From assembly GCA_008632985.1 (NCBI GenBank), contig QPGO01000010.1:496001-560000 (forward strand): DNA of 64,000 nt. The letters are read 5' to 3'. The DNA comes from Psammoneis japonica. Lineage: Eukaryota. The translations under genes and the position numbers were made by a program. Under the pieces are notes generated by a model, which worked only from the letters and a program-made list of their open reading frames with translations, was not told the DNA's origin and searched no databases. Below are positions 270 to 50,029 of this stretch, one piece after another; position 1 is the stretch's first letter; each line of letters opens with the position of its first letter.

Positions 270-470
270 TTCCGCCTGTTGCGTCGGTGTCGGGCGCCTG
301 ACTCAATGCTTAGAGAGAACGCCGCCATTGGCCATTTGGCGGAAAGCTAAAAGCTAATTACAAAGGATGTTTGTTTGTCTGAAGAATTGGCGTCTGCAGT
401 GTGGCCAGCTTCCTTGGCCGGTGGGAATAGAGCAGAGGGCACCACTGGATAGAGTGAAGCTCTTTGGACT

Positions 471-790
471 GTTGTTTCAACACCTGCCTGTTGAGTGTTT
501 TGTTGCATCCGGGAGATGGACGCCGGCTCTCTCAATGCCCACCAATGTGGGTGACCGATGGCTTCAACACTCTGTTTTTGAGTGTGTGCACAGGGAGACA
601 GACCATTTCAATGTCTCTCAAACATGCACCCCGGTGGGTGGATGGTTTCAACACCCATCCCCCCCCCCCCTCCCCCAGGAGGACGTGGGGATGGCTTCAA
701 ACCCTGTTGCGTGCACATGCCAGGGGATCAGTGGTTTTTCAACACATGTGTCAAACATGTGCCCCAGGGGACAGACAGCTTCAGCACCTG
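471..790 (+). repeat. Degenerate ~40-45 bp minisatellite, core GGAYRGYTTCAACACC (cluster 1)
   Basis: Core copies near 471, 558, 640, 690, 731, 775. Confidence 0.7.
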
Positions 791-949
791 CACTGAGTGT
801 GTGTGTTGAACCAACAAGACAATGTTGCCAAAAGGGAACCCTTTGAGGTTTCCTGTGCCACTCGTCACACTTGTCCTGGTTGCTCCTGTGGTCTGCGGCA
901 GCCATGGTTTGCCTGGAAGTCCTTGACAAACTTCAATCTTGCAGTGCAA

Positions 950-2430
950 AAGCTGCCTGCTGACACCACAGTGCAATTTGTGCAAACCAGATGATTCACT
1001 CCAAAGAGTGAGAAAAAAAAGGTTGGTGAGATTGGCGATGAATGCACACTCGCTGGTCCGGTGTTGCCAAATCCACCATGTCAGGATCCAAAGCATCTTC
1101 TCTTCAACATTTCCACTTCTGGGTTTTTTGCATTTCCTGCTCATTCTAGATGCTCCAACAACACACTCCTTCCACTTGGGTCAATGTTCAGAACACTTGT
1201 TCATGACACACAGGGGAAGGCCCCTCAGGCATCCACACACAGTGGGTCTGCTGGCCCAATCTTCTTGAAAGTTGCTGTTGCGATTCACATTGGAACATTG
1301 CCAGTTGGCATGTCACTCTTCATTGGCAAAATCCAACATCTCATTGAGTGCATCCATTGTGCCTTGTGTGCACTCCATGAACTTGCCAATGCAGGCACAG
1401 CAATTCTGCTCCACCAAGTTCATCATGTGAGGACCAACCAACCACCAGCTCATGATCTCCAACCATTGACCACTTCAGGATCTGACACAAAGAACCCCAT
1501 GCTGTGACAAGCCCACTTGTCCGGGGTCTTGCCTTGTTGATGTTGCAATCAACAACAGTGCTGGCTTCAGCATGCAGAAGTCAAGTCCATTCTTGTCTCA
1601 CACCTTTCGCAATGGACCTTGCCACACTCATCATCTCTCAGACTGTGCATCATGAGCGGGCCACAAACCCCCTCATCATCCATGCCATGTGCAGGACAGC
1701 TGATCATTGGCATGTCCGTCAGTGCTGCAAGAACATCTTGTCTGTCCAGTGTGAGTTGAAGATTCCCATTCCTGGATCTGGCAATTTGTTGGTCCTTCAA
1801 ATTTCTCTCGGGCCTCCCATGTGCCATTGTCAATTTCAGCAACATGTCTTGCCCTGCAACTCAGCATCAAAGCCAATCATTTGCCAGTGCTCGCTGTTCT
1901 TGTGCACATTCATTCTGTGCAGCTCAGCATCTTCTGTCACCATGCTCCCATCAGCATGTGTGGAGAACATCAGTGCTGTGGCAGTGGACACACACTTTGG
2001 CTGACTCAGTGTCCAATTTTTCACAGTGTCATCATGCAACTTTTTCATGGTGCTTTGTCCTGGCTTCTGCAATTCTGTCCATGTTGGTTCAAGTGTCTCA
2101 ATCTCCACATGTTCCACATTGGGGCCAATCATGTCATTCCTTTCATCTGAGTTGATCATCAATTGGCGCAAATTCACAGTGTCCTGTTGCAAGTGTGTGT
2201 CGACAGTCAGCAATGTCCTGTTGCTCATGAGCCATTGCATGAGTTCTTCTCTTGCATGTGGAAACTGCACTCCTGTCATCACCTTCCTGCTCTGTTGTGG
2301 GATGATGTCCAGCCCACTCATCACCTCGGTCACATGTTGTTCCAGCATGGAATGGTCCAAACTGTTGAACCATGTCTCACAATCACTTGGCCATTTCAAT
2401 GTGATCAGCTCAAATGTTGCCCATTTGCAA
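950..2430 (-). pseudogene. Decayed protein-coding sequence of unknown family
   Basis: Chained minus-strand frames (ORFs 1836-2399 and 1567-1845, plus a frame through ~1500-1000) read as natural protein if C/H are reverted to Y and TGA to CGA, e.g. LVEQNCCACIGKFMECTQG, RPTVCGCLRGLPLCVMNKCSEH. Confidence 0.45.
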
Positions 2431-2562
2431 TGACAATGTTCTCATCTACATTCATTGCTTGTTGACACAACCAACATGATGTGCACTGCTCTCAAGGCTC
2501 CTGTCCTTGCATCACATTCACACTGAGCATTGAAACTTTCATGGATCTTTCACCCACATGCA

Positions 2563-5500
2563 TCAGAACTCTCGTGCTTTTGTTTGACAGCCCACAGTGG
2601 CATGTTTAAACTTTTGGAACTTCTTGCCCTGTGATGGCTTTGTCATGAAGTCTCCCAGCATGTTGTTGATGGGACAATGCTGTGCTTGTAAGTTGCTCTT
2701 CTTGATCTGATTGTCAACAAGAAGTGTCAAACATTGAGTGCTCGTGACTGCTTGCCAGCACTCTTGTGTGCCCATCAGTTTCCAGCATGATGGCACTCTT
2801 GCTGTCCTGGTGCAAGACATTGTTGTCAATTGGATGCCCTTGGTGCTCCATGAACAGCTTCATCCACAGTGTCATGGTCATGGCATCATTGACTCCAACA
2901 AGCTCAGCTTCTGTGCTGCTGCGGGTGTTGAGCTTCCTGGTGCTTTGAGATGGCCTTCACTGCTCCTTTGCCAGCTGTCACAACTCCTCCTGTGTGGCTC
3001 TTGAAATCTGGATGTGCTGCAAAAAACAATGCACCCACATGCCACTTGATGACTTGGAGGTCCATCACACCTCACACTTGATGCAGCAGCAGTGACTTTG
3101 TTTCTTGTCTGGTGGCTCACATGCTTGAGACAATGGACCAGCTTCTCCCAATCCTTGTTGGTGGGAGCTCTGGCTTGCATGCATGATGTGGCAGATGTGT
3201 GTCCATTTGGCCTCTCTTGGACAGGAGCAGTCCCTTGGCCACCCATGTGCGGAAGGTCTGAGCCTTCATGTCTGACAATCTTGTGCTGTCGGAGTCAGAT
3301 GTCTGCTCTCTGTCTGCTGGTGTCACAGCAAAATCCACACTCGTCAACTTTTCCAGAATTTTGATTGATCATCTTGCAAGCACAGTCTGCCATGTTGACT
3401 TTCACTTTGCCCTTCTGGCTGAAGTCCTGGGTCACACCAAGACAGTCATGTCTCTTCCCCTGCACAGCAATGACTTCACCATGGCTGCCATGCTGCATCT
3501 TGTTTAGCCAGCTCAGGAACTTGTCATTTGCTTTTAGGTCATTGTGGCTCAACAACCAGTCATCCACATGGAACCAAATCATGCGCTGCTTGCGGTTGAC
3601 TGTTTGACTGGCATTGCATGGATTGCATGGGTTGAACTTAAAGCCTGTCTTTTTCAAGTCTTTCCAAATTGATTGTGCTGCAGCAGAGCAGCGGTCAGCA
3701 TGCCGGAGATGGCTCTGATGAGTCAGATGCAGAGGACTCTCTTGCCTTTCTCTGGGACCACACCATGAGGTCCGCATGGGGTTGGATTGATGCTCACTGG
3801 CATGTCCACCAGCACTCCTGCAATCTTCATCACAATCCTGTCTTTGCCTTCTCCAGGCTCTGGCATCATTGTCTGCACAAATGCACACGGAACATCGGTG
3901 CTCATTTCATTGCAGCTTTCATGGGCATCAACAATCACCATCATCAATGTCCCCTCAAGGGATGAAGTGGGGCTGGCTGACTCATCTTTGTCTGGTCATT
4001 TTTGGGTTGGGTTGTCATTGCAGACCATTCACCCTTTTGTGCAGCCATCTCATTTTTTGGTGAGGAACATCAAGGCTGCCATGGGCTTGGTCCTTTCAGC
4101 CAGAGTCATGTTCTTGGCTGATGCTGGTGCAAAGCACACTTGGTCATGCAACTTCTGCTTGATTTCTTTCTCTGAGGCATTGCGCCCCTTCTGGCCAAAT
4201 GCTTTGAGGCCTTTGTGGAGCAAATGTTGTTGGGCAAAACATGCACCCTCTCCACTTTGGAGTCGGTCATCAATCTCACATGAAGTGTGCAAGCAACATT
4301 GCTGTCTCCACTTTGTGCACAATGTTGCCCTTTGGTGCTTGAGCTTGTGTTGCTCCCTTGCCACTTTTCTGGCTTCTGCCACTCCTGCAAATCAAACTTT
4401 GTTCTTGTCTTTGTGTCCATGTGACTTCACCTTGAATGGTGCTTCACTTCTTGTGACTCTGCTTGGCGCAGCTCTTGTTTCTTCCTCCAATCATTTGCAA
4501 CCCCCATCTTGTGTCTTCCTGGGGTTCTTCATCTTGTTTGGACTCTTCACTCTCACAGTGTTCATCATCATCTGGGTCTTCTTCTACCTTGTGCTCTTCT
4601 TGAGCTTTGTGCTGTTGATTGGGGCTGGACCTTTCATTGGCTGACACATCATCAGCTTCTTCATGTTCATCATCTGAGTCAGGTGTGTGTCTTTGCAGTC
4701 TTCAACTTCTGACTTGGTTGGTGGTGCAGTTTTATCATCATTTTTGCTTCCTTTGCTTTCATCATCCCTGTTGCTGTCGCTTTTATTTTTGTCATTGTTT
4801 GCTCCTGCAGTCCAATCAGCATCACGCAAATTGTCTCTGTGCTTTCCTGTGAACTTGAATTCCTTGATGCCTTGTTGGATGGCCACATCCCTGACAGCTG
4901 TGACATGTGTGTTGGTCAAGGATGTGGAGGTGCACACTTGCAGGGATTCAACAGCTTGCCCATGTGCAGGTTCATGGCACAGTGTCCACCCCTGGGCAAA
5001 TTAAAATGTGGTCACAGGCAAATGCTGTCAATGCTGCACACTTCCATGGGGTTTGTCTTGTTGTTTGTGATGTGGGAAATGACAAGTTTCCCAAACTTGA
5101 GCTGGACATGTTTGTTGCAGCCAAGGTTTCTTTGTTGCACAGCAGTGTGCTGTGGACTGCAAGTGTCAGAGTGAAATCCTTTCTTTTTGCAGGTGCACAT
5201 TCAACATGACAGGAGTGTTCTTGATCATGGCTTGCTTGCACATCAACTCAGGTGTCATCTTGTGTGGCATGTGATGTGCAGTGGCTCTGGTTTGCTCCTT
5301 GATGGTCTGAGTGCTTTGCTCATTTTTGGGAAGATGGTCCTTGGCATTCGTGGATGCAAGTTCTAGATTCATGCCATCAGCAACTTCTGCCAGCATGTCT
5401 TTGAACTCAGGATCACACCCAATGAAGTCAATCTTAAATGAGGCCATGTTGCGCTGTCAGAGAATCATGTCCAAGGCTTTGCAAATGTGTTTGTGCTTCT

Positions 5501-7350
5501 TGGACTTTCACCTCACACTTGATTGATGCTTGATTCTTGTCTTGTCAACTGCACGGGCATCTTGACACTGCATGCTTCCACAATGTCAATGCAGAGGGCA
5601 GAGGGCTGCACCTTCTTTCTGCTTGTTGTAGATTTCAGGTGGAGCTGCAACAGTGATGTTCCTCTTGCAGGAATGGTGTGCATGCTTGGTCTTGTCTTTC
5701 AGTGTGTTCATGTCACCACATCCTGGCACAGTGCAGTCTCCATCCAAAGTGTCCACTCCTGCATTGGTGGACAGAGATCAATCTTGTTCCTTGCCAGTTC
5801 TTGCACTTTGTGCACCAGTTTCTGGCTTGCTGTCATGATGCTGAGGGCAGAACCATCATCAAGGATGATCTCATCTGACTTGATGCCAACATTGGCTGGG
5901 ATCAACCTCATCTCTGGCCTGTCTTTGGCCTGTTCAACTGCTTGGAACCCATGCCACAAAATGTTTCTCTTGCTCTTGCTGGAGTGTGATGACTGACTTG
6001 ACCTGTGGGTGTCTGTGCCAGCATTGATGCTGCTCACTGACAAAGTCTGACAGTCTTCTTTTCTCATCTGTGCATGACTCTGTCCCCTGGTGTCAAGTTT
6101 CCTCCCTGCTGGTGTTCTTGCACCAGTCTTTCTGTGGGATCTCATCCTCACATTTGCAGTGTGAGGACTTGTGGTTTGCTCACCACAGCAATGGCACACC
6201 ACAGCACCATGTTTGCCACTCTGGGCATGCTGACTTTGGTCTTGCAGGTTCTTGGACTTGTCATTGGTCTCATCTCCATTCTTGTCTCTGGGACAACCAT
6301 CATGCTTCTTGCTGCATTGCTTGCATGGATTGATGTCTCCCTTGGGTGGTTCAGCAACACATCCAGCATTGCCTTCTTGAGAGTCTTTGGGTGTGAGTCA
6401 CTTCCTGGGTTGCAATCTCTCATGAGGCTCCTCTCTTGAGGTTCTTGTGGAAATGGTCATCACTGTTTTCCACTGACATGCATGCAGTCCATGTCTTGCA
6501 TGCAGCATCTTTCAGCGCCTGCTGCACTGCTTTTGTTTCTGCCACTGTGCCAGTGCAGTCCTTGCACTCCTTGGCATTCTTGACAAAACCATCCAGCATC
6601 CCACTGTGGAGAACATTGCTTGCAGCATCTCATTGATTCTTAAATCTTGACAGGCAGTCATTCAGAGTGACTGGTTCTTTGTTGTTGCACATCCAGCACA
6701 TGCTTCAGAGACTTGGCAAGTGCACGGAATGGGTGTCAACCTCTCATGGAGTCAAATGTCAGTGACTGGATCAGCTTCAACAGCTCAATCAGGTCATCTC
6801 TGATTTTCTCACAACTGGGTTCAGCTGGCACTCTCTGATTCACAAGCTTGGCAAAGCAATCATCCAGGATCACTGAAAATGCAGCAGTCTTGTTTTCCTC
6901 AAGCTTCCTCACTTTCTCATTGCAGCAGTGAAATGCAGCCTTGTGCTGATGTTCCAGCTCTTTTTCTTCTTGTGATCTTTTGTCTGCCATCTCCTGGTGG
7001 TCTGAGGCATCTGCCTTTGGCATTGCCATCTTTGGTGAGCCCAGAGTGAGTTTCACATCATCAGATCTCTTGTGCTTCATGATGTCCGTTGACCTTGCCT
7101 CAGGTGAACACCCTGCTTGACCACATTTCTTTTGCACGTGGTTGATGACATTCATCTTGACATCCTTGCATGTTGCATTCCATGAGTCAATGTTCATCAA
7201 TGATGGACAAAACTTCATCTCTGGCTTCTTAAACCTCTTCTTTGGGCCAGTCTTCTTGTTCTTGTTGTAGGAAAACTTTTGGCCTCTGCCACCTCTGCCT
7301 TGGTCATGTCCTCAGCCTTCACCACTCATCCCACCTCCTCCTCTGCCACT
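2563..7350 (-). mobile_element. Ty1/Copia LTR retrotransposon internal region (gag-PR-IN-RT-RNaseH), degenerate; no LTR pair recognised
   Basis: Minus-strand order: gag (ORF 6736-7218), zinc knuckle CHCCG (~6190), protease IILDDGS (~5860), integrase CDPEF...PKNEQSTQTIKE (~5300-5420), RT STDVPCAFVQT, FNPCNPC, WFHVDD, KRHDCLG, RNase H end HCPINNMLGDFMTKPSQGKKF. Integrase upstream of RT is the Copia order. Many stops and frameshifts. Confidence 0.9.
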
Positions 7351-7439
7351 CACAATGCAGCTTTCCTGTGTCAGATGATCAAATGGAGGTTGGCACCACA
7401 TGCACCAAACACAGTGCTTCTGACTCATTTATGCACTCT

Positions 7440-7520
7440 GGGAGAAGGGCAGCTTCAACACCTGTTCAATGCACACCCCATGGGACAGATGGTTTCAAAC
7501 TCATCAAATGCACACCCCAG
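7440..7520 (+). repeat. Minisatellite cluster 2 (same TTCAACACC core)
   Basis: ggcagcttcaacacct (~7449) and gatggtttcaaactc (~7488), each followed by a TGCACACCCC-like tail. Confidence 0.55.
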
Positions 7521-9100
7521 CATCTGCAGCATGTTTTGCTCTTGATGAGAAGATCAGTTGACAAGAAAAAAATTTGCACCTGTGGCTGCATTCTCCACAC
7601 AAGCATTGCAATTTTTCAAGAATTGACCAACAAGGTGGTCATGGCAACTGCAACTCTGAACAATGTTTTGATGCTGCTTCATTTTGAGTCACAAATCTGG
7701 AGTTGCCAAAGCCATCATTTAGGCTGACACAGTCAATTTTTCCAACAACAGTGGTCACAGGTTTGCAGTGTTTTTGTCATTTGTGGTGCAGTGATGCCTC
7801 ATTCAGAGCTGACCCATTTGTTTGGGAGAGCTTCAATTTGATTGCCCACTGCATGTTGCATGTTTTTCAGTGCTCCTGCCATGTTTGTCTCTTTGTTGCA
7901 TCCTGCACTGCACAACTCAGCCACCAATCTGGTGTTGTTTGCATGACACCAATGGCACACCCCTTTTGCGACCCAATGTGTCCCCTCATCACATGTTTGA
8001 CAACAATGAGAAAAGGCTCTCCTTTCAATGTGAATGTCTCATTGAACCAACCCCCTGTTCACAGACAATGCCATTACAAGCTTGAGTCCTTTCCTTCTGC
8101 CCAATGTCAATTTGCACTCCAGAGCCCAACTCACAATGTCAACCAATCACTGCAATGTTTGTGCCATCATTTGATCCTGGTCATCATGCTCATGCTTCCT
8201 GTTGCCACAATGCTCATCAACCAGAATTTGACTTTGTTTCACACCATCACAATTTGACAAATTCCAACATCAACCCAGATTGCAGTGTGGATCAATCTGC
8301 ACTTCATTCAGCACCACTTTGTGAAGCTGTTGACAGACAACAAACAATGCTGCAAAACCTTTTTGGGGTGCCAAGTCATCAGGGCCAACATGGCTGCAAT
8401 TTGATTTTGTGGATTGTTGTGGTCTGTGTTTTGCACACTGTTTTAGCTGCTGTGGCAGTTCATTTCTGCTGGCCAGCACCAAATCATGTTCTCTGTCTGT
8501 GCATGTCTTCCTTCTTTCTCTGTGAATGCAGCAGTTCTCATCTCTTGAAGAAGATTGCACAGGGTCATTTGGATGCCTTGTTGGAGAGAAAGATGAGCAT
8601 TCTCCGTGCACCCAACTCCAGGACCCAGACTGCATGGGTGGCAGTTGCAAGCACCAAGGCTTTGGTGACAGAAAACTCATTTGACATGTTGAGACTTTGT
8701 GCATGGGTCTTCATCATCAACCAGATTGGCCACAAAGACTTCTCACTTGCTGACTCCTCACAGCAGGAAAGCTTGACAAGGCTGCAAGCCTCCACAAAAT
8801 GTGCATGGCATGCAACCAATGAAGCTCAGGGCCAACCCCACATTTCTGACTCACATCCCAACCAATCCTCTTGCTAGATCCATTCTTGCTTGAACTTGAG
8901 ATCAGGATGAAATGGCTTGCCCATGCATCACAGTTCTTCATCACTTCCAACAAAGAGAAACATGTTTAAAAAATGCTGCCACAAACTTCTCCATTCTCCT
9001 CAAGATGTTTTGCAGTCTCTGGCATTCCCCATGCATTTCTTTTGGAAGTTTTGTGCACCTGCTGCCACTCAGCAATCAAACCTTTGAACTGGTCACTCTG
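7500..9100 (-). pseudogene. Decayed protein-coding sequence of unknown family
   Basis: One minus-strand frame over 8280-7500 (IWVDVGICQIVMV*NKVKFWLMS...TGGWFNETFTLKGEPFLIVVKHVMRG...) is interrupted almost only by TGA, as expected from CGA->TGA decay. Confidence 0.4.
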
Positions 9101-9119
9101 GCGGAGTTTAGAAATTCGA

Positions 9120-10460
9120 GTCTGGCTTGCTGCTGTTGTTGGGGACAAGGCAAGATGGGGCCACAGTGCCACAAGATCAACCTTGCAATGCTCAACCACA
9201 GTTCTTAAAGTCTCTCTCCTGGGGCCCACCAGATGCTGCCAGCACCCTCATCCTGCAGTTGTCAGGTTTGGTGGCACTGTCATGGTGGGGTCCTTTCACT
9301 CCAGAGTTCTCAGGAAAGTCAAGTCTCTGTTGCTGCAGGGAGAAAGGTCACATGGGGCCACAACACCACAAGATCAACCTTGCAATGCTCAACCACACTT
9401 CTTGGAGTCTCACCCAGGGCCCACCAGACACCACCAGTGTCCTCAACTTGCTGTTGTCAGGTTTGTCAGCACTCCCCCTGCCATGGGGTCTTTTCACTCT
9501 GGAGCTGTGAAAGTGTCACATCTGCTGCTGTGGGGGAAATGTGACATGTGGCCACAAAACCACAAGATGATCAACCTTTCAATGCCCAACCCAACTTCAG
9601 CTTGCTGTTTTCAGGTTTGTTGGTGCCATCATGGGGTCCTTTCACTCTAGAGTTTGAAAACTCAAGTCTGCTGCTGTTGGGAACAAGGTGACATGGGGCC
9701 ACAATGCCACCAGATCAAACCCCAGCAATGCTCAGCCACAGTTCTTGGTCACATCTTGGGTCTGCCAGACACCACCAATGCCCTCAGCTTGCTGTTGAAA
9801 TTGGGTCACAACTCCACAAGATCAACCTTGCAATGCTCAACCACAGCTCTCAAAGTGTCACCTGGGGTCTGCCAGAGACCACAAACACTCTCAGCTTGCA
9901 GTTGTCAGGTTGGTTTGCACCATCATGGATCCTTTCACTCTGGAGTTGGGAAGTTCAAGTTTGCTTCTGTTGCAAACAAGTTGACATGGGGCCACAAGAA
10001 CGCCACAAGATCAACCCTGTCAACAACCAACAAGAGTTCTCAAAATGTCACCTGGGGGGTCTGCCAGATGCTGCCATTGTCCTCAACTTGCAACTGTTGG
10101 GTTGGTTGGTGCCACCATGTGACCCTTTCACTGTAGAGTTGGGAAGTTCAAGCACACAAAACAGGCCTTGCACTGCTCAACCATGGTTGCTGCAGAGTCA
10201 CCTGGGGTTCACAAGAGACCAGAAGTTTGATGTGTGCTTCTGGCAGATGGGACACAACAGGGTGCCACAAATGCTCAACACTGGTCTCACACACTTGCTC
10301 AGTTCAAACCACTGTTCTCAAAGTGTTGCCTGGGGTCTGCCAGAGACCACACCAGTGCCCTCAGCCTGCTGTTGCTTGTTGGGTTGGTTGGTGCCATTGT
10401 GGGGCCTCTTCACTCTGAAGTTGGTGGGAAGCTCAAGCCAGCACCAACTTGCTGGAGACA
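9120..10460 (+). repeat. Degenerate tandem repeat, ~8 units of 100-195 bp
   Basis: Anchor CACAAGATCAACCTTGCAATGCTCAACCAC-like at ~9171, 9368, 9562, 9711, 9816, 10005, 10155 (weaker ~10300), usually followed by CCTGGGG...CCAGA and CCTTTCACTC. Confidence 0.85.
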
Positions 10461-12199
10461 AGGTGACACAAGGGAGTCACACAACAGCCATGACCACATT
10501 GGCACACAGGCAACTGCTTGTTGAGCAGGAGAAGCATTGGCAGGAATTGACACAGCTGCAGTGCTCCATGTCTGTGGGGGCTGCTGCTCTGGCCCTTTGC
10601 TGGCTGGTGCACATTTGGCATGGTGGTGGCTGTGCTGACCCAGTCAAACTCTTGCTTGACCAGCTCCCTGTCTGTGACCACCTGCATGACCAACTCCACA
10701 AACCTTGTCTTGACCCAATGCCTGCAAGGGACAAAAGTTGTTGTGCATGTGCAGATCAGCAGCAAAGATCAGCTGTGCAGCAGCAAACTGCATGGTCTGA
10801 CACAAATGTGTGAAAATTTCATTCTTGACAAGGGCTGATTGAGGTTACAAAAATTGAGACATCAATCTTCTTTGAAAACAAATGTGCAGCGCATCTGGTT
10901 GAAACAATGTCTCAACATCTGACTGCCAAACAAATGAGAGCTCACAAGCAAAACACATCAGCAATGAAGACCAATGTAAAATGACTCATGCAAAAGTTGA
11001 TTCAACCAATTTAAAACTTCAAAAACAAGTGCAACAAAAGGATTTCTAAAAAAATGAGACTGCATGCAAAATGATGCAGGCAATGAGATTGCCAGGCACC
11101 AGCTGGCTTGGCTTGTGGCAAAAAGAGGCGCATCGCTGCCACACAAAACAACAAAAAAAGCACAGGATGCACCCAAGCATCCCACAAACAATGACAACAT
11201 TGCAAGAGGGCACCAACAAAGCCCATGACTCTGGACACACCAACACAAAGAAAGGCCATGGGGAAGGCAAGAGATTGGAAGTGCAGCACGGGAGCAGGCA
11301 GCTTGCAGCAAACAAAACAAACTGATGCTTCCCCTTGCACTTTTTTTGTTTCTTGAAACTCAGACAAGTTGACAAAAATGGCCAAGGACAAGAAGCAAAG
11401 TGCTGCAATGTCACACACAGGTGGGCAGAAACAACAGCATTGTGCCATGCTTGACAAAGAAAATGCACCAAACTGACAACTTCTTTGCTGTCTTCTGCCA
11501 GGGATTGCTCCAATGTGTCTCACAATGAAAAGCCGTCACAAAAACTGACTCTCTTTGAAGCACCGACAAATGAAACATGATGTGTTGCCAGTGCAGCCAA
11601 GAACACCAACAAGATGTGAGACAGACTGTTGTGAGAGGAGACAGTGGGGGAGACAGACAATGGGGCGGCAGCTTGAAGCACAAAAGGAGCAAAGGCAGCA
11701 GAATGAAGGGTGGAACAAGAGCATGCACCAAACATCAATCATTGCCAGGGTGGAAAGAAAATGATGTCATGGTTTGCTGGAAACCAAAACTGCAAAGTGC
11801 GCAGCACCAATTGACAAATGAATGAATCAAATTGTTGGTGTGTTCCAGCCGTCAATGAACAACAACACAATTGATGAGATTGACTTGGGTGCATGTGCAC
11901 AGAAATGAACCATGCATGTTTCATTCATTGTCATTTTCCACTCCACTGGCTTGGCCAACAATCAACACTCCAACACCCACAGTCGTTGCACTGTGGTTGA
12001 CTTTAAAATGAATCTTGTCAAAAGCCCAGCATGCACTGTTTGGAGACCACCAAATTTCCTTTAGCCTGGTTTCCCACTTTGCTGATTTGGTCAATTGTCA
12101 AATCAATTTGTTTGTGATCAGCTTGGTCAGAACACAGGCTTCTTGTCAAGCAAGCTTTAACCGCAAACAAGAGCAATCACATTTTCCAGATGAGGGGAT

Positions 12200-13090
12200 G
12201 GTGACAAGCCTGGCAGTGCCACTGAGTTGCTGCCCATCCTTTTTCCACTGGAGCATCTCCAAAGTGAGGAGCTTGAGTCTCCAATGACAGCAAATGAATT
12301 GGAGGTCATTTGCCAAGGGGGAATGAGCACAGAACAGTCAGTCATTTGAGGAGTTGCACATGTTTGGCAATGCTTGGGTGACTCCAGCCACACCAAGATC
12401 ACTGAGGCCAGAAGAGAGCACCCCTGAAAGGGTCTTTAAACCCTGAACAACATGCACAGAACAAACATCAGAGGAGCAGCAATCTTGAGGGTGCTCAGGC
12501 AGCTGTGCCAAGACTGAGGCCAAACAGAAAGCACTGAGCTGGTCGGATGGTTGTAACACCCATTGAACCTGCATCCCGGGGGGAGGGGGTTGGACAGTTT
12601 CAACACCTGCCAAACATTCATCCCAGGGGTTGGATGGTTTCAACACCTCCTGTCAAACGTGCACACGGTTTCAACACCTGTGAAACTTGCATCCTGGGGG
12701 ATGGACATTTTTACACCTGTTAAACTTGCATCCCAGGGGAGGGTGACAAGCCTGACAGTGCCATTGAACTGTCCATGCTTCTTCTGCCAGAGTGTCTCCA
12801 ACAAGGAGCTGGAGACTCCAATGGCAGTGAATGGGTTGGAAGCTGTTCGCCGAGGGCAATGGGCACAAACCAATCATCTGAGGAGCCGCATGTGCTTGAA
12901 AATGCTTGAGCACTTCTTGCAATGCCAAGACTGAGGCCAAACAGAGAACAACTTTAAATCCCGAACAATGAGCACAGAACAATCAGTGCTGTAGAGGAGT
13001 CGCATGCTTGAAAATGCTTGAGTGGCAATGCCAAGACTGAGGTCAAACAGAGAGCACCAAAATCGGACTATAAATCCCGAGCAATAGACT
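12200..13090 (+). repeat. Local duplication plus ~110 bp repeats
   Basis: GTGACAAGCCTG... block at ~12201 and ~12743; CCAAGA...CTGAGG-type units at ~12393, 12507, 12924, 13030. Confidence 0.75.
12541..12745 (+). repeat. Minisatellite cluster 3 (GGATGGTTTCAACACC core)
   Basis: Five core copies near 12545, 12592, 12632, 12664, 12703; same orientation as cluster 1. Confidence 0.75.
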
Positions 13091-18121: not shown

Positions 18122-18204
18122 GCATCGAGGGCTTGGTCATGCGTCACGCCCCATCGAAAGAAAGGTTGCATCTTCTTTCGTTCTCCCAGCACCTGGTATA
18201 TTCG

Positions 18205-18385: not shown

Positions 18386-18527
18386 ACGATGGAATTGGCA
18401 TGCTCTAGAAAAGCCTTTACTCTGCCGTTCAGTGGACTGGTAGTCCACTGGCACACTGATGATGCTCCTACCACCTCTTCCTATCTTTTGATGTCACTCG
18501 CGCATCTGCTTTAAGTGCTCGAGCTCA

Positions 18528-18823
18528 TCTCTCTCTCTCTCTCTCTCTCTCTCGCTGGAGGGAGTACAGCCAGTTAGTAGCTACGTACTGTATTAGAGAC
18601 TACCGTAGAGAGAGAGAGAGAAACTGGCCAGAGTAGAGGTGGCGGGTGTACGACTAGCTCTCTACTAATAGTATGTACTACAGTAGAGTGTAGAAGGCCC
18701 ACTTCATTCGTAAACTAGCAGCCCGCCCTTTGCTTGGTAGCCTACCTTTTTTAATTTCTTTTCACCCCTCGTGGCCGGCTCTAAGCTACCGGTAGAGCTA
18801 GAGAGAGCTACGGTATGGATAGC

Positions 18824-18855
<32 letters not shown>

Positions 18856-18990
18856 ATCTAGTAGTAGATATCTACTCTCTACTCTCTAATAGAGAGCTAG
18901 CTAGAGTACATAGTACTGTAGTAGCTACCGGTAGAGAGCTCTTAGCGTATGGATAGCGTTATTAGGAGTAGGGCCTAGTTAGTTGCCCGT
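18528..18990. repeat. TA-saturated low-complexity island with (CT)n, (AG)n and (CTAT)n
   Basis: (CT)~13 at 18528-18553, (AG)~7 at 18607-18621, (CTAT)~7 at 18825-18855, two copies of AGCTACCGGTAGAG (~18784, ~18923). Confidence 0.8.
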
Positions 18991-19280
18991 ACGGCCTACA
19001 AGTATGTCCGTTTGTCCTTTATTTCCTCGCATCACGCACGCATTCTGAATTCATCCAATGACGACGACTCATCACAACGACGCACTTTTCATTTCTTGCG
19101 CGCGTGTCTGACAATCGATCAACAGTCATCATCAGCCTCCGGTTTTCTGTGAGAAGTGAGAACAACCAAGAAGAGGGAAAGTGCAAAAGACGCACCTTGT
19201 GCTGACTACCGTAACGCGACGACAGGCGAACAATAAAGACGACAGCAGGCAGCAGGCACAATAAGCGGCATCGATACAAC

Positions 19281-23775: not shown

Positions 23776-24942
23776 TGCGGGAAAGTTTGTTCTTACCGTA
23801 TATGCGCCTGCTCCCCTCCCTCAATCTAGAGTCGAGTCGTCGCCCACAACATACAGATGTACAGTATAGTTTAAAGAGTAATAAAAAATATCGTTCTATT
23901 TGTGCGAGCAAGCCGCGTTTGTGTGTCCACTTAGAGTGGGTGCTATGAGACATCATTGCAAGCCCCTTACATCAAGTGTATTATGGCCAAGTCCAATGTC
24001 ACGTCCAATGGAATCTTTAACGCTGGAGCAAAATGAGATGGTTCAGGTAGTACTTTCTCCATTTGCTCTCCCAACTCGAGTGCATGATCAACTAGATCAC
24101 TGATCTCATTGTCGTCCATATGAACATGTTTTCCGAACGGATTCCGTATTATCTTTCGGTTTTGTAATTGTGCCATTTCTGAAGCAGCATCAACTGGAAT
24201 TCTTTGCATTGTTTCAGGACTGGTCTCAAGCATTGTCGACATATCAAAAGATTGTGTTATCGGAGGAGACGGATGAAATGTTCGTGTAGAAACGGAGAAA
24301 ATGCGGCGGAAAGGGACTGGTGCCAAGGTCCCACCGCTGTTACTATCAGGAGGCGCTTTCGCTGGAACTTGACCATTGTGTAGTTGTTGATAATGTATAA
24401 CTGATCAAAAGTGTTTTCGGAATGATTTTTGTGGGATATTTCGTGAACATTTAGATTGATTATAGTGCATGCAACATGCAATTGCACGGCACCTTGGTCA
24501 AAATGTGGCGAGAAATGATCAAGGAACAGAAGGCGGGGTTTGAAATGTCGGAGCGGTGGTAAATACGTCATCATTGACATGTGCCAGATTTCGAAGACTG
24601 TCTATGTTACGAAGCACTCTAGTAGTAGATGGCATAGTACAATGCAGCACCAGTTGAACAAAACCGAAGGGCAATTTTACATTTAACGAGATGAGGCCCA
24701 ATCGTACAATTTCAACGCAAGTTTCAACGATGATCTTCCGGAGGGACGGACCAAACGACAAACAGTCTTGTCACGACGTGAAGCGCACGCACCACGTCAG
24801 ATTGGATAAAAGGATCTTCTGCTTCCGCCATTCCTCGTCCTTCCTTGAGGCTCTTCTTCGTTCCTTCCGCTTTGCCACCCATGGAGTCGAGTCCAGCCTC
24901 CATCCGGCAACTCCATCACTCCCCCCCCCCCCCCCCCCCCCC

Positions 24943-25217
24943 NNNNNNNNNNNNNNNNNNNNNNNNNNNNNNNNNNNNNNNNNNNNNNNNNNNNNNNNNN
25001 NNNNNNNNNNNNNNNNNNNNNNNNNNNNNNNNNNNNNNNNNNNNNNNNNNNNNNNNNNNNNNNNNNNNNNNNNNNNNNNNNNNNNNNNNNNNNNNNNNNN
25101 NNNNNNNNNNNNNNNNNNNNNNNNNNNNNNNNNNNNNNNNNNNNNNNNNNNNNNNNNNNNNNNNNNNNNNNNNNNNNNNNNNNNNNNNNNNNNNNNNNNN
25201 NNNNNNNNNNNNNNNNN
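24943..25217. other. Assembly gap preceded by poly-C
   Basis: Run of N. Confidence 1.
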
Positions 25218-26690
25218 CCCTTTGTGACATTTAAAGGCTGCAACACGTCGCCGTGATGCATCAACTCTCATTGGCAACTGTGTGTTGCACTCCTCCCCAT
25301 GTGTCGCGCGTCCATGCGGCTCTTTGCTGACGTGCGCTGACACTGCACGGTTTTGGCGGAACAGTGTGGGTGCACACGAAGGAACATGCAGAACTGCACA
25401 GAGTTTTTTCCGCATTCGACAGTGATCAACGTTGCTGCAGACAACTCCCACTCAGGGTTTCGAACCCCTGGCCTCCTGCCTGATGGTTGCGATGAACCAC
25501 TCCGCTGTGAATTCACAACGCAGCATGCATGCAGACAAAAGGTCATTTTTGTCACACCCTTTGTGACATTTAAAGGCTGCAACACGTTGCCGTGATGCAC
25601 TGGCTCTTGTCAGCAACTGCACATTGCACCAGCCCTCCTCTCTCTGCCCATCTCTTGCTGCTTCTCCAGCACCCAGCTTGCCTCTGCTTGTGCCATTGCC
25701 GCTCAGCACAAGCTCTGCCTTCCGCCCTGCCGCTTTCCTTTCTTGCCTTGTTGGCGCGCCCCTTGCTCCTGTGGCCACGCCTCCCTTGAAGCCTGCAACA
25801 ACAACACCTTTCCTTGCCAGCATGGCCGCAGATCAAAGCTGTCCAGCAGCTTTTCTTGTGGTGCCATCTTGATCTAATCTCTCAGATCCTGTGCTCTCTT
25901 GCCAAACTTTGTCGCTTGCCCAAGACAATGCTCACCTCAAGCATGTGAGCCTCGCCCCTTTCTGCTCACTCTTTCATTCCACCAAAGCTGGCATGATCTC
26001 CTCGCCCCTTTCAGCACCCCTTTCCACCCCCTTCATCATTGCTGCACCGCTGCTGATGTCGCTGTTCTCAAAGCTCCCTTGCTCTCCTCCCAGTCTTCCT
26101 CTCCTGTTTCAAGTGAGGTGTGCCACTCGAGCGCGAGGCCGAAGTTCCTTGGACCTTCCAACCCTTTGACAGACGGCTCCCTTGCTGTTGAGTCTCTCAA
26201 CAGTGATGGGATCTTTGTTCTCTCCTTTGCAGTTGATCACCTCAGAGGTCTTGGACTCTTCTGTTGTCAGCTCCTTTTCAGCTCTTTGCTCTCATCTGCT
26301 CCTTGTTCCCACCCCAAGACCCCTTGGACATTTCCTTCTTCTCGTCACAACTCCAATGCTTCCTGCTCAGCTTTTCTCCATGCCCCCTTGCTTTCCCTTT
26401 GGCTCCTGTCCTTCTTTCTGCTGACTTTGTTTGGAGTCGCCTCTCCAATGAGTGCTGTGGTCATGTGCACCCCTCTTCTTCCCTGCCCCAGTGGGCCATC
26501 CAAACCCTTGGCAGCAACGTCACCCATCGTTTTTCTTCCCATGCTCTGTGATGTTTCTCTTCCCTCCACACTGAATCCTCTCTGCCCCATTCCCTCACCA
26601 AGCACCCTGCACGCTTCGTCATGCATGTCCCTTCCACTCCTCTGCCTCAACAACAACTGCACATCAAAAGTTGTTGGTTCATGAGGCGCA
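25218..26690. mobile_element. TpA-depleted repeat domain 2 (unclassified element; 43 bp direct repeat with 339 bp period; strong pyrimidine skew on + strand)
   Basis: 25218-25260 matches 25557-25599 except one CG->TG change; TpA nearly absent while CpG is common. Confidence 0.55.
25446..25512 (-). pseudogene. tRNA-derived sequence (SINE head or tRNA pseudogene)
   Basis: Minus strand TTCACAGCGGAGTGGTTCATCGC...CAGGGGTTCGAAACCCTGAGTGGGA: A-box-like CAGCGGAGTGG (25507-25497) and B-box GGTTCGAAACC (25466-25456) within a T-arm-like hairpin; anticodon arm not intact. Confidence 0.5.
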
Positions 26691-27122
26691 TGCATTGTAA
26701 ATTGGACAATAAACTAGTTTGACCTTTCTAAACTCAGAGTGCAGAGAAAGGAATGGCGCAACAATCTCACCACAGCAGTGAAGGTATGAGCTACGAGTTC
26801 AAAATAATGTTGCCTTTTCAACGTATTGTCTCAGGCTACTAAAGCCTAAGATAGACCTCTCTCTAGAGCATTGCTTCTCAACACACAAGACATAACCCTT
26901 TCCACCATGCATGCATCATAGGAACGTATAAACTAATGTTACGATAAGACCTATGAAACCCACACTCTAGCGTCAACGCTACCTCGCCGTAGAGGTGTTA
27001 CCCTGTGTCCGCCTCTGTTGTGTTTTCAATCGATGCCCAAAGTCAATGCATGCAGCACAAGTAAGTGTCTCGGTTCGTAAGAAGCTCTTTTGCCTGAGAC
27101 ACACACGCATACCTATCTTTCT

Positions 27123-28346: not shown

Positions 28347-29036
28347 GGTTGTTGCTTTCAGCTTGCTGTTTTTGCTGTGGTGTGTGGGGAGAGGAGACTG
28401 GAGAAAAAGGAGGGGGCGGCGCAGACAAAAAGGAGTTGAAAGCTTTTTGCGCGAGCAATTCACACACACACGAACACCCAAACAAAGAACCAGAGCAAAG
28501 AGGGGCCTTGCGATTGCTGCATGCCGCATGTAACATGCTCAAGAACCAAAAACTTGAGTGCATGTTATCAGAAATGTTGTTAGCAGGCTACTGTAGTCGA
28601 ACCTCTGTACAGTCGTTGTTGTTGCTTCGCATGAAATCATGCTGTTAAGCAATCACACGGCAGCCTCGCGAAATCACCGGAATCACACGAAATCACGCAC
28701 TCGCGCTGACACTCGCCTCGAAATCAAACTCCCCTCGGTTCGTGTACGAGTGTGGGAGAGACGATTCCGTTGAGCGGCGAGTGCAGATTACGCGAGGAAT
28801 CAAACAGCAACAGTGCAGGAGTTGTTTTTGTCAAGGGAATTCGTTGAGCACAAGTGTTGTTGCTGTTGTTGATTGTTGATTGTGGGCGTTTTTTTTGCAT
28901 GCCAATGACTGGCGCTCGCAACGGTCTGACATTTGTTTTTGAAGAATCGGTTCTTCACACATTTGTTGCTCTCACACTGAACATTGTGATTGTTGATTTT
29001 GCTCCACAACAGATTTGACAGTGCTGTTTGTGAAAG

Positions 29037-31466
29037 ATGAATTTTGAAGAAGAAAGTGGCTTTCATCTGCCTGATCATTCTTCAAGCAGCTCGTCTGAAG
29101 AAGAAGAAGAAGACAAACAAGATGCCCCGCCACTGATGCAAAACACGGAAATGGCAGTCAAATCTCTTGTGGGCTTGCACAACACATCAACATCCAATTC
29201 TGTTGCTCCACCTCAAGCTGGCTGCTTTGGCTGCAACGACAATGCTGATGGATGCCACGAATGTCAGGGGAGCAACGGGTCGTTTTCATGTGCCAATGCC
29301 AATGCACCAGCGGCACATGCAGCGGCACCAACAACAGCTGTGGCACCCACTGCTGCACCTGCTTTGGAGTGCAATGATGAGCAAATGTCGAGAGAACTTG
29401 CTGAAAGCCTTCACTGCGGGACGTGTTCTGGCTCAGATCTCACTGCGCAAGAAATGCCAAACATCAAGAAGGCTTCCAGTGTTTCAGCTTGGCATTTGAA
29501 TGCAAGAGATGAGTTGGAGGTGCACTTTTTTGCAACAATGGAAGAGTCAGGCAGTGAGAGGCTGCAGCATCTTCTTGAGGAAATTGAGTCGGAAGAGTCC
29601 GTTGAGACTGTGCGGGTTTTCTACAAGACACTTGCGGGAGAGAAGATGCAACACAAGCATGAGATTTTGAATTTCTGTCTTGTTCTCATTGTCCATTGCT
29701 GGCACAATGTAAAGACTGGTGAAATGCATGAGCCATCCATGTTCACCCAGTGCGCGAAGCAACTTTTTCAAACCTTTGCGAGACACGGCATTCAGCACAA
29801 GTGTGATGACAAGGAATTCAAACAGAACGGCGGCTGGTGCTCCATTTTGGAAGATGAATGGAAGAAGCAGCAAGAGGAGGACAGGTCTTTTGGCATTGGC
29901 AAGAACAAGTCACACGTCGACATCAGGGCAGATCAGAAGACAGCGGCAAAAATCTGTGAAGGCAAGTTTCGACCCATGGAAGACTGCGAAGACATGACAC
30001 CTGCTTTGATTTTTGTGCTGGGGCGCCATTTTGGGTTGCGTGGCAATGAGGAGATTGCCCATCTCACATGGGACAATGTGACAATGGGCAAGTGTGAATC
30101 TGGACCGGATGTCAGGAAGTTGCAAGTCAGGGTGCAACTTGATGAGGACAAAGTCAACAAACTGAGGATCAAGAGTCCCATGCTCCAAAAGCAGCTCCTC
30201 GATGGAATGCATGTTCGTGAAATGCCCATGAATCCCGTGTGTCTGCTCAAGCTCATTGCTGTGTGTCAGACTTGGTGTCCTCCGGATCAAGAGAGATTTT
30301 TGCACCAAGAGGTGATGAACAAGCAAAAGCAGCAGCACAAGCTGGATGGTCTGGCCTGTCTTGCAAGGCCTGGAAAGACTGCGGGTGTCATTGGCGTCAA
30401 TGTTGTTTTGGACAAAATGAAGTGCATTGCTCAGCTGCATGGTTTTGACAACTGGGAGCAAGCGACAAGCCACAGCAACCGTGCATTGATGACCACTTTG
30501 TTGGCATCTGCTGACTTGCACCCAAAAGAGATGCAAACTCGTGTGAGGCACAACTGGTCAGAGAGCCAGTTGCTGCATGTTCGTCAAAGTGATCTGCTTG
30601 ACCATCAAGTGCAGAACGCGCTGGCTGGGAATCAGGGCGCGTCGGTTCAGAGCTTGTTGGTTCAGGACGCATCGGTTCAGAATGCATCTGTTCAGAATGT
30701 GTCCGCTCAGAATGTGTCGGTTCAGGATGTGTCAGCTGCAGCCACCTTTGCGGGTGGAGCTTCTGTTCCAGCATCATCTGTGGCAACCTCAGAGTCCAAC
30801 AAGACTGCATCATTGAGCGATCATTCCGCGCCATCCTCGGAATTGGGGAGTTTGCACACAGAGAAAATGGAGCCAGAGTCTGCTGTTCAGATGCTGGAAT
30901 CTCAAGTTGCTGATCTAGAATCTGCCAATGCTGTGCTGAAGTTGAAAAACAATGACCTTTCTGAATCAACATCTTTGGTGGAAAAGGAAAATGCTGAGCT
31001 CCGGGAACTGGTCAACAAAATGAACATGAAAGATTCGATCATTTCTTTGGAGGATCGCGTTGGTCACTGCAATGACTCCATTGAGAAAATGAAGAGCTCT
31101 GTTGAGACAATGGACCAGAAGTGTTGTGACACCCAGAAAGAGACAGTGCAGCTGCAGTCGAATCATGCAACTTTGGAGTTGAAGCTTGAGACTGTGCAAG
31201 GAACAATTCAAAACCCATGTCTGACCATCAGCAACCAAGATCATCAAGAGATCCGCCATCTCAAGGACACCATGGCACAAGCAGATGTGAAATGTCAAAC
31301 CCTCAAAGACAAGGTTGCTCAATCTAAGCTCCAAGAAAAACAACTCTTGGGTGAGTTCATTTTTTGGAGGAGCGAATTCAAGACTTCAGGGGCGAGAAGA
31401 GGAGAGCCGCGGCGGGTGTGGGATGATGTGGGACAATGTTCTTTTGGACAAAATGGGGAAGGATGA
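29037..31466 (+). pseudogene. Tyrosine recombinase (Crypton/DUF3504-like) with C-terminal coiled coil; open frame but predicted catalytic Tyr reads His
   Basis: GEMHEPS (cf. Crypton G..YEP), FGLRG.EE (R at 30039), HSNR (30471-30482), RH.....SQLLH (CAT at 30576-30578 where Tyr is expected). Only one Tyr in 809 aa. Confidence 0.75.
30639..30728 (+). repeat. 15 bp coding tandem repeat x6 (ASVQN-like)
   Basis: gcgtcggttcagagc / ttgttggttcaggac / gcatcggttcagaat / gcatctgttcagaat / gtgtccgctcagaat / gtgtcggttcaggat. Confidence 0.9.
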
Positions 31467-32842
31467 TGTGACAGTGTCACCAGTGTGTTGGCATTGCCAG
31501 CATTTTAGTGTTGCCAGTGTTTTAACTTGCTGGACGGCAAACAATGCCACGATCCAAAAAGTGAGCTGTGGTGTGTTTCGAACATTGTCTTCCACACTGT
31601 TTGATGTTTGAATTTTGTCATTCACAGGTGTGTCTCGCATGTGTGATGCAATTCACCCTTTTGTGTAATTCTGAAAATGCCAGGCAATGACAATGTCGTT
31701 TGCAATCTTCAGGACCTCATGAATCTGAACACATGATGTGCTGACCAAGCATCTGGCCGTGGGGAGTTTGGGGTGGGGAGGAGGGGTCGGGAAAATTCGA
31801 GAACCTGATGGATTGCCCGACGTAAGTCCTGCGTGTTTTTCACATTGGCGAACTTCAACCGTGGTGATTTCTGGAATCACCGCGCTTGCCGTGTTGTGAT
31901 TCTGGAGTCGGTCACGGCTCCGGTCACCGCGCCAATTGCTCGCTGATTCTCACGACACGGCAAGTGTGTCATGGCCAAGACTCCAAGCCCAGCAAGGAGA
32001 GAACCCTCATCCTTGGCTGGACCGAGAGTCACCACGCAAAAGCAGGAGTGAACGGGTGAAGGAAGGATGACGGATGAATGACAGACAGATGATGGACAAG
32101 ACGAGCGAGCAAAACTGGCCCTGACCCTCATTGTCTGGCAGGTTGGGAGACACCACGGAACTGTCGGGGCGTCTCCAAGGAGATGCCAACGATGAAAATT
32201 GAAAACCCTCCACTCCCAATCCCGTCAGCACACAGCGAAAAGGGAGCCAATTGCTTGGCACCAGCGATTCCAAGCCTGGCCCCACATCCCAATTGCTTCA
32301 CCTGCTGGCGACCATTTTCATCGTGCCAACATCATGAGTCTACATCCGGCTGTGAACATTGCGGATGTGCTGGACCATCTCCACGAGTTGCATCGATGGA
32401 CTGGAGTCGCTTGCACTGTGCCATGTCATCGGAGTGCTGACAGCCGAGGCGGCGGCAGGGAATCCGTGGGATTCTCGCGTGACTGGTTTTTCGGTCATTG
32501 TTCGTGCACCAGTGAAATAATGTACTGTGATTTCACGTGGCTTCTACGTAACGAAAAGTCATAATGACCCTTTTGATCGTACATTCTACATGATTCCCGT
32601 ACAAAACCAATGACTGCACAGTTGCTGTTTGATTCCTTAACAAAATGACTTTGCAGTGAGACGGACAGACGACTATTCGTTACTGTAGGGCGGGCAGGCG
32701 GGGGCGCGCGCCAGCGAGGCGAAAAGCGAGCGTGCTCCAGTGCGCGCCAGCGGTCATACGTAGGATTAATACTGCATTCTACGTGGAAGGCACAACATAC
32801 CGTTTTCCAGTTTTTCTGCACATCAGGCATCAGGAGGCGACC

Positions 32843-49908: not shown

Positions 49909-50029
49909 CGTCGTGGGCCCAACCGTCTGTCGCATTCTGAGTTCGCAGGCTCGCAGGTCGCAGGCTCGCTGTCGCACAGAGCTGCTCACATTTTCGAGTG
50001 GAGAACGCCGCGCACCTCCTGGTTGATCG

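Follow-up and report, generated by a model that had tools for sequence, protein, structure and literature searches.

Probable TpA-directed hypermutation of a Ty1/Copia-type element and other repeat DNA in Psammoneis japonica

A stretch of 64,000 nt of Psammoneis japonica contig QPGO01000010.1 (hereafter the window, to which all coordinates refer) carries at 2563-7350, on the minus strand, a badly degraded Ty1/Copia-type element that is almost free of the dinucleotide TA. The 12.5 kb of mixed repeats around this element and three more blocks of the window are hit in the same way, which indicates that the process acts on integrated DNA. We consider it likely that the repeat blocks result from a regional, strand-symmetric TpA>TpG/CpA hypermutation of integrated silenced DNA, probably by adenine deamination, together with CpG decay. 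The signature is that described in the main text of a preprint on the alga Bigelowiella natans (bioRxiv 10.64898/2026.01.13.699255); here it appears to have reached saturation, in the retrotransposon and other repeat DNA of a diatom-like genome. A sequence-only reading that preceded this analysis had described the loss of TA from the Copia element; it is supported but was too narrow, because the effect is regional, CG is converted as well, and the B. natans precedent was missed.

Results

TA is missing from four sharply bounded blocks

Between the depleted blocks, designated A to D (Table 1), the window consists of gene DNA in which the genes form long uninterrupted open reading frames (ORFs) and the observed/expected ratios (o/e) of TA and CG are 0.58 and 0.99. 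The depleted DNA holds 83 TA in 31.2 kb versus 1192 in 30.0 kb of gene DNA, so that chance is excluded as the cause of the lack. The block borders are sharp (<50 bp): TA ceases at 450 and returns at 12955, and at the border of block D it occurs every 10-90 bp until 49884 and then not before 50820. The dinucleotide frequencies of the blocks minus those of gene DNA are -0.037 for TA, -0.045 for CG, +0.039 for CA and +0.046 for TG, which means that the gain of TG and CA equals the loss of TA and CG.

The tandem repeats and other unannotatable DNA of block A are as TA-free as the Copia element itself, and a Pfam search of 76 ORFs (at least 110 aa) from the depleted DNA outside Copia returned 0 families. 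A TA-rich spacer between tandem genes at 18480-19020, which contains runs of (CT)n, (GA)n and (CTAT)n and lies 6 kb from block A, is untouched; the effect therefore does not separate coding from non-coding DNA. In six frames, the depleted DNA has 88 TAA, 42 TAG and 1532 TGA stops, compared with 518, 539 and 1152 in gene DNA. Because TA>TG/CA makes no stops and removes TAA and TAG, ORFs are abundant in the depleted DNA, with 66 of at least 60 aa in 7 kb.

The Copia element is a dead copy with RVT_2-type relatives

HMMER with the ORF at 3298-3906 against 1.84 billion representatives yielded 1025 proteins at E<=1e-3, of which 168 reach E<=1e-10 and the best 1.7e-29, and all matches align to residues ~80-190 of the query. 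RVT_2 was present in all 15 relatives scanned, in 12 of them above the Pfam curated cut-off. The best named relative is a Cylindrotheca closterium protein annotated as 'Ty1/copia-type RT domain' (E 1.7e-29, 46% identity). A protein-cluster look-up with the reverse transcriptase (RT) piece gave a weak lead in the same direction, with 4 of 30 matches in a set with RVT_2 on 17% and with Bacillariophyta in the top clusters, and word-indexed homologue searches with the RT ORF returned no match. Judged by the HMMER relatives, the element at 2563-7350 has the RVT_2-type reverse transcriptase of Ty1/Copia LTR retrotransposons.

In tblastn with 14 long relatives of normal Tyr content, all 44 segments fell within 2575-5765 on the minus strand; what precedes RVT_2 in these relatives aligns at 5765-4700, and what follows it at 3300-2584. 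The in-frame pieces of the Copia pol contain 1 Tyr and 15 stops in 1029 codons. With 15 in-frame stops, at least four frame changes and its conserved Tyr replaced, the copy is dead. Pfam called no family in 10 long ORFs of the Copia range (E<=0.01) and 0 retroelement families in 72 minus-strand stop-free pieces of at least 25 aa (E<=5); in the 5' remainder at 5766-7350 there was no tblastn match past 5765 and no Pfam match among those pieces. The gene order of Copia places integrase ahead of RT and RNase H last; Pfam named no rve or RNase H family either in the window or among the 15 relatives, where the sole related call was SH3_retrovirus in one protein (P0118).

Sensitive blastn, a repeat search and a transition-tolerant local alignment found no long terminal repeat (LTR) pair, only a 76-nt similarity between 583-659 and 7430-7505. 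These two places belong to a motif of ~60-76 nt ending in GGATGGTTTCAACACC, which also occurs at 12585-12647 (also 12547-12744), so that block A contains it at spacings of 6.8 and 5.1 kb; it could be a terminal-repeat remnant or a small dispersed repeat.

Conserved Tyr, Leu and Arg codons are changed at TA and CG

The 14 long relatives aligned by tblastn served as the reference, and a column was taken as conserved when at least 4 sequences aligned and at least 60% agreed. The window is identical in 182 of the 337 conserved columns and changed in 155. The sequence-only reading had proposed that conserved Tyr and Leu codons of Copia were converted by single transitions at TA, and alignment with intact relatives bears this out: none of 14 conserved Tyr is kept, and ten are now Cys or His (5 H, 5 C, 2 T, 1 S, 1 F). 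Arg was kept in 3 of 22 columns (8 Q, 2 stop, 1 C, 1 H, others). Residues with codons unable to hold an internal TA or CG were mostly retained, namely Q in 6/6, W in 5/6, C in 4/5 and H in 8/10 columns. TA- or CG-context transitions alone account for 47 of the 155 changed columns (TA>TG 10, TA>CA 12, CG>CA 17, CG>TG 8), and 21 others are different single transitions. The 10 TA>TG and 12 TA>CA changes inferred on the coding strand are balanced (binomial p=0.83), in agreement with the proposal that the change is polarised away from TA and strand-symmetric. The 25 CG-context codon changes are R>Q/*/C/H, T>M, D>N and E>K.

Five of the six sites named as examples in that reading carry Tyr or Leu in the majority of relatives. 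These are the minus-strand codons TGT at 3444-3442 in H-D-C-L-G (Y in 13/14), TGC at 3627-3625 in N-P-C-N-P-C (Y in 14/14), CAT at 2679-2677 in H-C-P (Y in 7/9) and TCA at 2634-2632 in T-K-P-S-Q-G (L in 8/9), and the codon at 4226 (Y in 8/13). For the CHCCG knuckle (6196-6182), the sole relative with a comparable zinc knuckle reads CFCCG. The RT segment has four columns in which 62-92% of 108 normal relatives carry Y; in each of them the window reads C or H, as do 28 Tyr-poor relatives.

Relatives that already have C, H or S would remove the need for a conversion. This does not apply to the five example sites, but it does to HVDD (3567-3556, minus strand): many reverse transcriptases have YxDD at this position, and a Y>H conversion was considered and rejected because H is native there, being present in 96% of the 108 Tyr-normal relatives. 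Not every H or C in the window is therefore a converted Tyr.

Both strands are affected alike

Each block contains TG and CA in nearly the same number (502/476, 508/475 and 1573/1394, among others). A runs test gave 12 runs along the Copia element, where 11.9 would be expected, and z values of 0.66, -0.16 and -0.28 for the sites at which the copies of three paralog pairs are discordant; without runs there is no sign of long one-strand tracts. The sequence-only reading had argued against one-strand editing of RNA or cDNA in retrotransposition, and that argument is supported, as both outcomes occur on the coding strand and one-strand tracts are absent. The block D paralog pairs (72-78% identity) show 40, 30 and 30 discordant doublets with TG in one copy and CA in the other, whereas duplicated genes of similar divergence, used as a control, show 7 and 4. 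At 80% likeness, 849 contigs of public run X1 match the Copia region, indicating that the family is multi-copy, and the copies differ by 764 transitions versus 324 transversions.

TA loss is faster than CG loss and separable from it

Block C has 4 TA in 2.7 kb, yet an 810-codon frame is open and CG o/e is 0.48-0.78. Stops make up 2.8% of the codons of depleted DNA (six frames), which gives an 810-codon frame a chance of ~1e-10. The open frame and the remaining CG indicate that TA was removed before indels or CGA>TGA changes occurred, and faster than CG. TA-free zones exceed the CG-poor cores by 150-850 bp, which suggests that targeting is regional and separate from CpG decay. At 31666-32518 the TA o/e is 0.05 and the CG o/e 0.78, and at 49886-50030 CG is dense while TA has already stopped. 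CG survival varies rather little with context (0.04-0.31), in contrast to TA survival.

Eight metagenome loci related to the RT were found with a pattern from a 6-sequence alignment that contained a Y>C change (a 39-sequence alignment was too diverse). L006 has TA 0.01 and CG 0.62, and L005 has TA 0.10, with an internal border, and CG 0.51. L007 and L004 have intermediate TA (0.24 and 0.37) and may be partly converted Copia copies. CG is lowered in L001 and L003 (0.36 and 0.29) at normal TA (0.50 and 0.60), and there is no TA depletion in L002 (TA 0.55, CG 0.94) or L008 (TA 0.86, CG 0.62). Because the losses of TA and CG occur apart, we consider them to be two processes.

Surviving TA is mostly TTAA

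Among the 83 surviving TA, 26 are TTAA (31% vs 3.9% of gene-DNA TA) and 51 are YTAR, and none is ATAT, ATAC, GTAC or GTAT. Survival in blocks A and D relative to gene DNA was 0.58 for TTAA, 0.21 for TTAG, 0.15 for CTAA, 0.10 for CTAG and GTAA, and at most 0.06 for all other contexts. With the strands pooled, the base 3' of the target A in the survivors is, relative to gene DNA, A 2.5-fold, G 1.1, C 0.48 and T 0.2. Survivors that are mostly TTAA suggest a neighbour preference in the order TAT ~ TAC > TAG > TAA. We also considered whether the survivors are new TA arising from the abundant CA and TG, which does not explain their context distribution (chi-square 123, p 5e-19). In the products (excess of NTGN versus NCAN), five of six asymmetric contexts lean to the predicted strand and one is a tie, although this comparison is confounded by CG-derived products. 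The 7 TA that survive in metagenome locus L005 are YTAR without exception. ADARs prefer a 3' G, and the 3' preference inferred here (Y > G > A) differs from theirs.

The signature recurs in other samples

Public run X1 contains 86% of the sampled words of the stretch, X2 and X3 next to nothing, and no RNA run is listed as containing it. X1 contigs at a depth of 61-72 match 4612-5243, 5460-5872, 5868-6580 and 6886-7270 with 0 differences, which disfavours mis-assembly. Among the matches listed, 28 of 150 proteins are Tyr-poor (Tyr 0.12% vs 4.06%, C+H 9.2% vs 4.9%). The 25 Tyr-poor relatives that were looked up all come from ENA or Logan assemblies, and some could be from the window's own organism. 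The metagenome loci and the 28 Tyr-poor proteins are the independent support. The Tyr-poor proteins, including P0004, P0008, P0024 and P0044, are evidently hypermutated retroelement frames called as genes in public assemblies.

Discussion

Proposed mechanism

In the process that we propose, the DNA of silenced chromatin would have its adenine deaminated to hypoxanthine, whichever strand carries it. The enzyme responsible would need a 5' T and would prefer a 3' pyrimidine, whereby TTAA would largely escape, and chromatin state or small RNAs may direct it to its targets. CpG would be lost to TpG or CpA by another process, slower and more narrowly confined, for which the decay of methylated CpG is the simplest candidate. 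As a consequence, Tyr codons would turn into Cys or His codons, TAA and TAG would vanish and the TA process would add no stops, leaving frames open and proteins scrambled. TadA and ADAT2/3 deaminate A34 of tRNA, which is always preceded by the near-universal U33, so that a requirement for 5' T would be natural for a DNA-acting derivative of such an enzyme.

We advance a wider version of this proposal only tentatively. An active defence might exist in diatoms in which chromatin-targeted adenine editing of DNA, a 'reverse RIP' (RIP, repeat-induced point mutation), rapidly erases TpA from transposons. It might be homologous to the chlorarachniophyte process, old in the group of stramenopiles, alveolates and rhizarians (SAR), and carried out by an enzyme whose descent from a tRNA-A34 deaminase would show in its preference for T-A-pyrimidine and its blindness to TTAA. 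If so, dead elements become long open frames in six phases and a steady source of Tyr-free ORFs, which gene prediction already lists as proteins.

Alternative explanations

The foremost alternative places the damage on the other base: TET/JBP-type enzymes would oxidise the T of TpA to 5-hydroxymethyl- or 5-formyl-uracil, whose mispairing with G would lead to T>C. 5-Formyluracil is mutagenic, and the 5-hydroxymethyluracil of dinoflagellates prefers TpA. The data are blind to which base of the T:A pair was hit, the same pattern would result, and the neighbour rule can equally be read as 'RTA favoured, TTA disfavoured'. We nonetheless give this route a small chance, since no sign of such base modification in the organism appeared within the analysis and the sole study that saw the process arise favours, in its main text, adenine deamination with an ADAT2-like candidate.

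A smaller chance still goes to one dual-specificity deaminase that would remove TpA (A>I) and CpG (C>U/T) alike. The same blocks have lost the two palindromic YpR steps, these losses balance the gain of TG and CA, and Mettrop et al. cite ADAT2 enzymes reported to be active on both A and C in DNA (10.64898/2026.01.13.699255, main text). Such an enzyme fits poorly with block C and L006, which lack TA and keep CG at 0.5-0.8, with the reverse in L001 and L003, with TA-free zones that outrun the CG-poor cores, and with the even survival of CG over contexts.

Editing in the course of retrotransposition, by an ADAR-like enzyme on RNA or by deamination of cDNA with the mutated copies then inserted, would account for the many copies that share TG or CA states as if mutated templates had been copied. 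We regard it as very unlikely, because the two outcomes are equal on the coding strand and form no tracts, tandem and unrelated repeats between elements are equally TA-free, borders lie at block edges rather than element ends, and the B. natans mutations, as reported in the preprint, arise in integrated single-copy DNA.

A sequencing or assembly artefact, such as modified bases misread, could be suspected because one run only contains the stretch, possibly the assembly's own sample. It is hardly credible against k-mer contigs without differences at high depth, the same signature in other projects' metagenome contigs (L005 and L006) and among the 28 Tyr-poor proteins, and changes that agree with the protein alignments at each codon. 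It is just as hard to believe that selection, or a foreign lineage natively poor in TA, lies behind the pattern: avoidance of UpA, for codon or RNA-stability reasons, is widespread in expressed RNA and gene DNA is itself at TA o/e 0.58, but the copy is dead, non-coding repeats are equally hit, and the TA-rich spacer 6 kb off is untouched.

Several points weigh against the reading that integrated DNA was hypermutated at TpA by adenine deamination, or narrow its reach. The evidence is an end state; the enzyme, inosine and de novo events behind it are postulated. At the 40 best-supported variant places covered by the copy comparison from run X1, most other copies are TA-poor and often share one TG or CA state, and at 5249/50, 6699/700 and 7188/89 the CA of the window is TG in most other copies. 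These shared states imply that conversion is partly older than the divergence of the copies, that outcomes are site-biased, or that TG and CA interconvert via short-lived TA or CG. Single transitions do not account for 87 of the 155 conserved columns that are changed; these point to much ordinary divergence, to frame slips and to noise where the aligned stretches have 23-30% identity. The neighbour rule is based on 83 survivors, with gene DNA standing in for the ancestral composition, and the eight metagenome loci, picked by a pattern containing the Y>C change, are a biased sample. Run X1, as possibly the assembly's own sample, would not be independent of it. Without an LTR pair the age of the Copia insertion is unreadable, and the analysis covers the 64-kb window, outside which the genome-wide extent, the copy number and candidate deaminases lie.

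Comparison with known systems

The closest counterpart of TpA hypermutation in the window is that of B. natans, as given in the main text of the preprint by Mettrop et al. (bioRxiv 10.64898/2026.01.13.699255). Two integrated viral regions accounted for 231 of the 302 nuclear single-nucleotide mutations detected in mutation-accumulation lines; with one exception these were A>G or T>C, and every such transition was at TpA. The rate was ~1000-fold above background, in some lines only. A single-copy insert was hit, and the targets are integrated DNA of nucleocytoplasmic large DNA viruses (NCLDV) and virophages. The B. natans genome contains 124 TpA-poor, CpA+TpG-rich clusters, and RT and DDE domains are enriched among the TpA-depleted coding sequences. 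An ADAT2-like deaminase was proposed.

The window resembles this system in having TpA>TpG and TpA>CpA on both strands, in local blocks of foreign DNA that are TpA-poor and CpA+TpG-rich. As an end state, A:T>G:C change is confined to TpA, with 22 inferred TA-context codon changes; both strands are affected, and the local blocks consist of mobile DNA, with neighbouring genes and the spacer spared. The differences, again relative to the main text of the preprint, are a rhizarian host there and a diatom-like stramenopile here; an NCLDV region with TA o/e 0.45 there and an LTR retrotransposon with mixed repeats at about 0.02-0.05 here; and de novo events there, the end state alone here. CpG is co-depleted in the window, while the term 'CpG' is absent from the preprint's main text, and the TTAA or 3'-neighbour exception has no counterpart in that text, which holds no flank analysis. 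Our additions to the known kind are thus the host lineage, the retrotransposon and repeat target, the saturation, the co-loss of CpG and the neighbour rule.

Fungal RIP is similar in that resident DNA is hypermutated, repeats are inactivated, footprints are sharp and regional, and a dinucleotide is specifically hit. RIP, however, consists of C>T mainly at CpA, which raises TpA and makes stops, whereas TpA, TAA and TAG are removed here; RIP also depends on repetition, unlike the process that hit the single-copy insert described in the B. natans preprint. RIP was rejected as an explanation, given that TpA is removed rather than created.

ADAR and APOBEC enzymes likewise produce deaminase-type transitions with neighbour preferences. 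They mark one strand and end at the element, whereas here the strands are equal and the footprint is regional; one-strand editing by these enzymes was rejected, given the symmetry of the outcomes and a footprint that extends far beyond the element. Mettrop et al. note a preference of ADARs for a 5' U (10.64898/2026.01.13.699255, main text).

Decay of methyl-CpG produces CG>TG/CA, the change seen in the cores of the repeat blocks, and would explain the CG half only; CG o/e is 0.01-0.28 in blocks A and D, and the 25 CG-context codon changes are of the kind that such decay would leave. The diatom CoDi-type Ty1/Copia elements (Maumus et al. 2009, PMC2806351, consulted in part) are linked to our element by its best named relative from C. 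closterium, and differ from it in that the copy here is invisible to Pfam and has no detectable LTR pair. A literature search that reached few subscription journals found no report of TpA hypermutation in diatoms, which does not prove its absence.

Significance

If our reading is true, the TpA hypermutation first described in 2026 for a single rhizarian alga is at work in diatoms too and there saturates retrotransposon blocks. Diatoms are major, tractable phytoplankton and would offer the enzyme search a second lineage with transformable relatives. The target motif becomes sharper, with TA followed by a 3' pyrimidine hit and TTAA spared. For annotation, Pfam-based calling of transposable elements fails on such DNA, as the blank results for the 72 Copia pieces and the 76 other block ORFs illustrate, and dating by LTR or divergence under a uniform clock would be wrong. 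Tyr-free pseudo-proteins also get into databases, as shown by the 28 of 150 among the matches listed.

Other features of the window

The blocks, the control spacer and the annotated features are collected in Table 1.

Table 1. Positions of depleted blocks, control DNA and sequence features in the window
Feature	Position	Strand	Remarks
Block A, repeat DNA including Copia	450..12955	.	TA o/e 0.00-0.09, CG o/e 0.01-0.18, five sub-stretches
Degenerate Ty1/Copia-type pol (part upstream of RT, RT, RNase H-like end)	2584..5765	-	tblastn; frames -3/-2/-3/-1/-2
In-frame RT segment (FNPCNPC ... HVDD ... HDCLG)	3298..3669	-	HMMER matches, RVT_2 in relatives
Presumed gag with CHCCG knuckle at 6196-6182	5766..7350	-	no homology support
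Tandem/dispersed ~100-200 nt repeats in block A	9130..10450	.	3 TA only (9206, 9648, 10134)
Control: TA-rich non-coding spacer in gene DNA, untouched	18480..19020	.	68 TA in 18501-19000
Block B, including a 275-N gap	24807..26698	.	TA o/e 0.04, CG o/e 0.47
Block C, CG partly lost	28789..32518	.	TA o/e 0.02-0.05, CG o/e 0.48-0.78
Open 810-codon ORF in block C	29034-31463	+	no Pfam family
Block D, repeat DNA with internal paralogous copies	49884..63813	.	TA o/e 0.03-0.06, CG o/e 0.14-0.28

The 810-codon ORF of block C looks like the gene of a mobile or viral insert from which TA is gone and in which no stops or indels have yet appeared. A PDB sequence search with its 810-aa product returned coiled-coil matches only; its central part may resemble a tyrosine recombinase. 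Inside the frame, at 30641-30733, lies a 15-nt tandem repeat of 6.2 copies that encodes a pentapeptide of (S/A)VQN(A/V) type.

In the DNA of normal TA and CG content, three tandem paralogues with a DUF6824 domain and 72-76% DNA identity occupy 16164-23775 on the plus strand. An aldehyde dehydrogenase ORF lies at 40072-41967. A protein-cluster look-up with this ORF led to bacterial clusters that were uninformative on taxon; a diatom-like host is indicated by its best named relatives, which are from Ditylum (74%), Odontella (71-72%), Triparma (70%) and Seminavis (68%).

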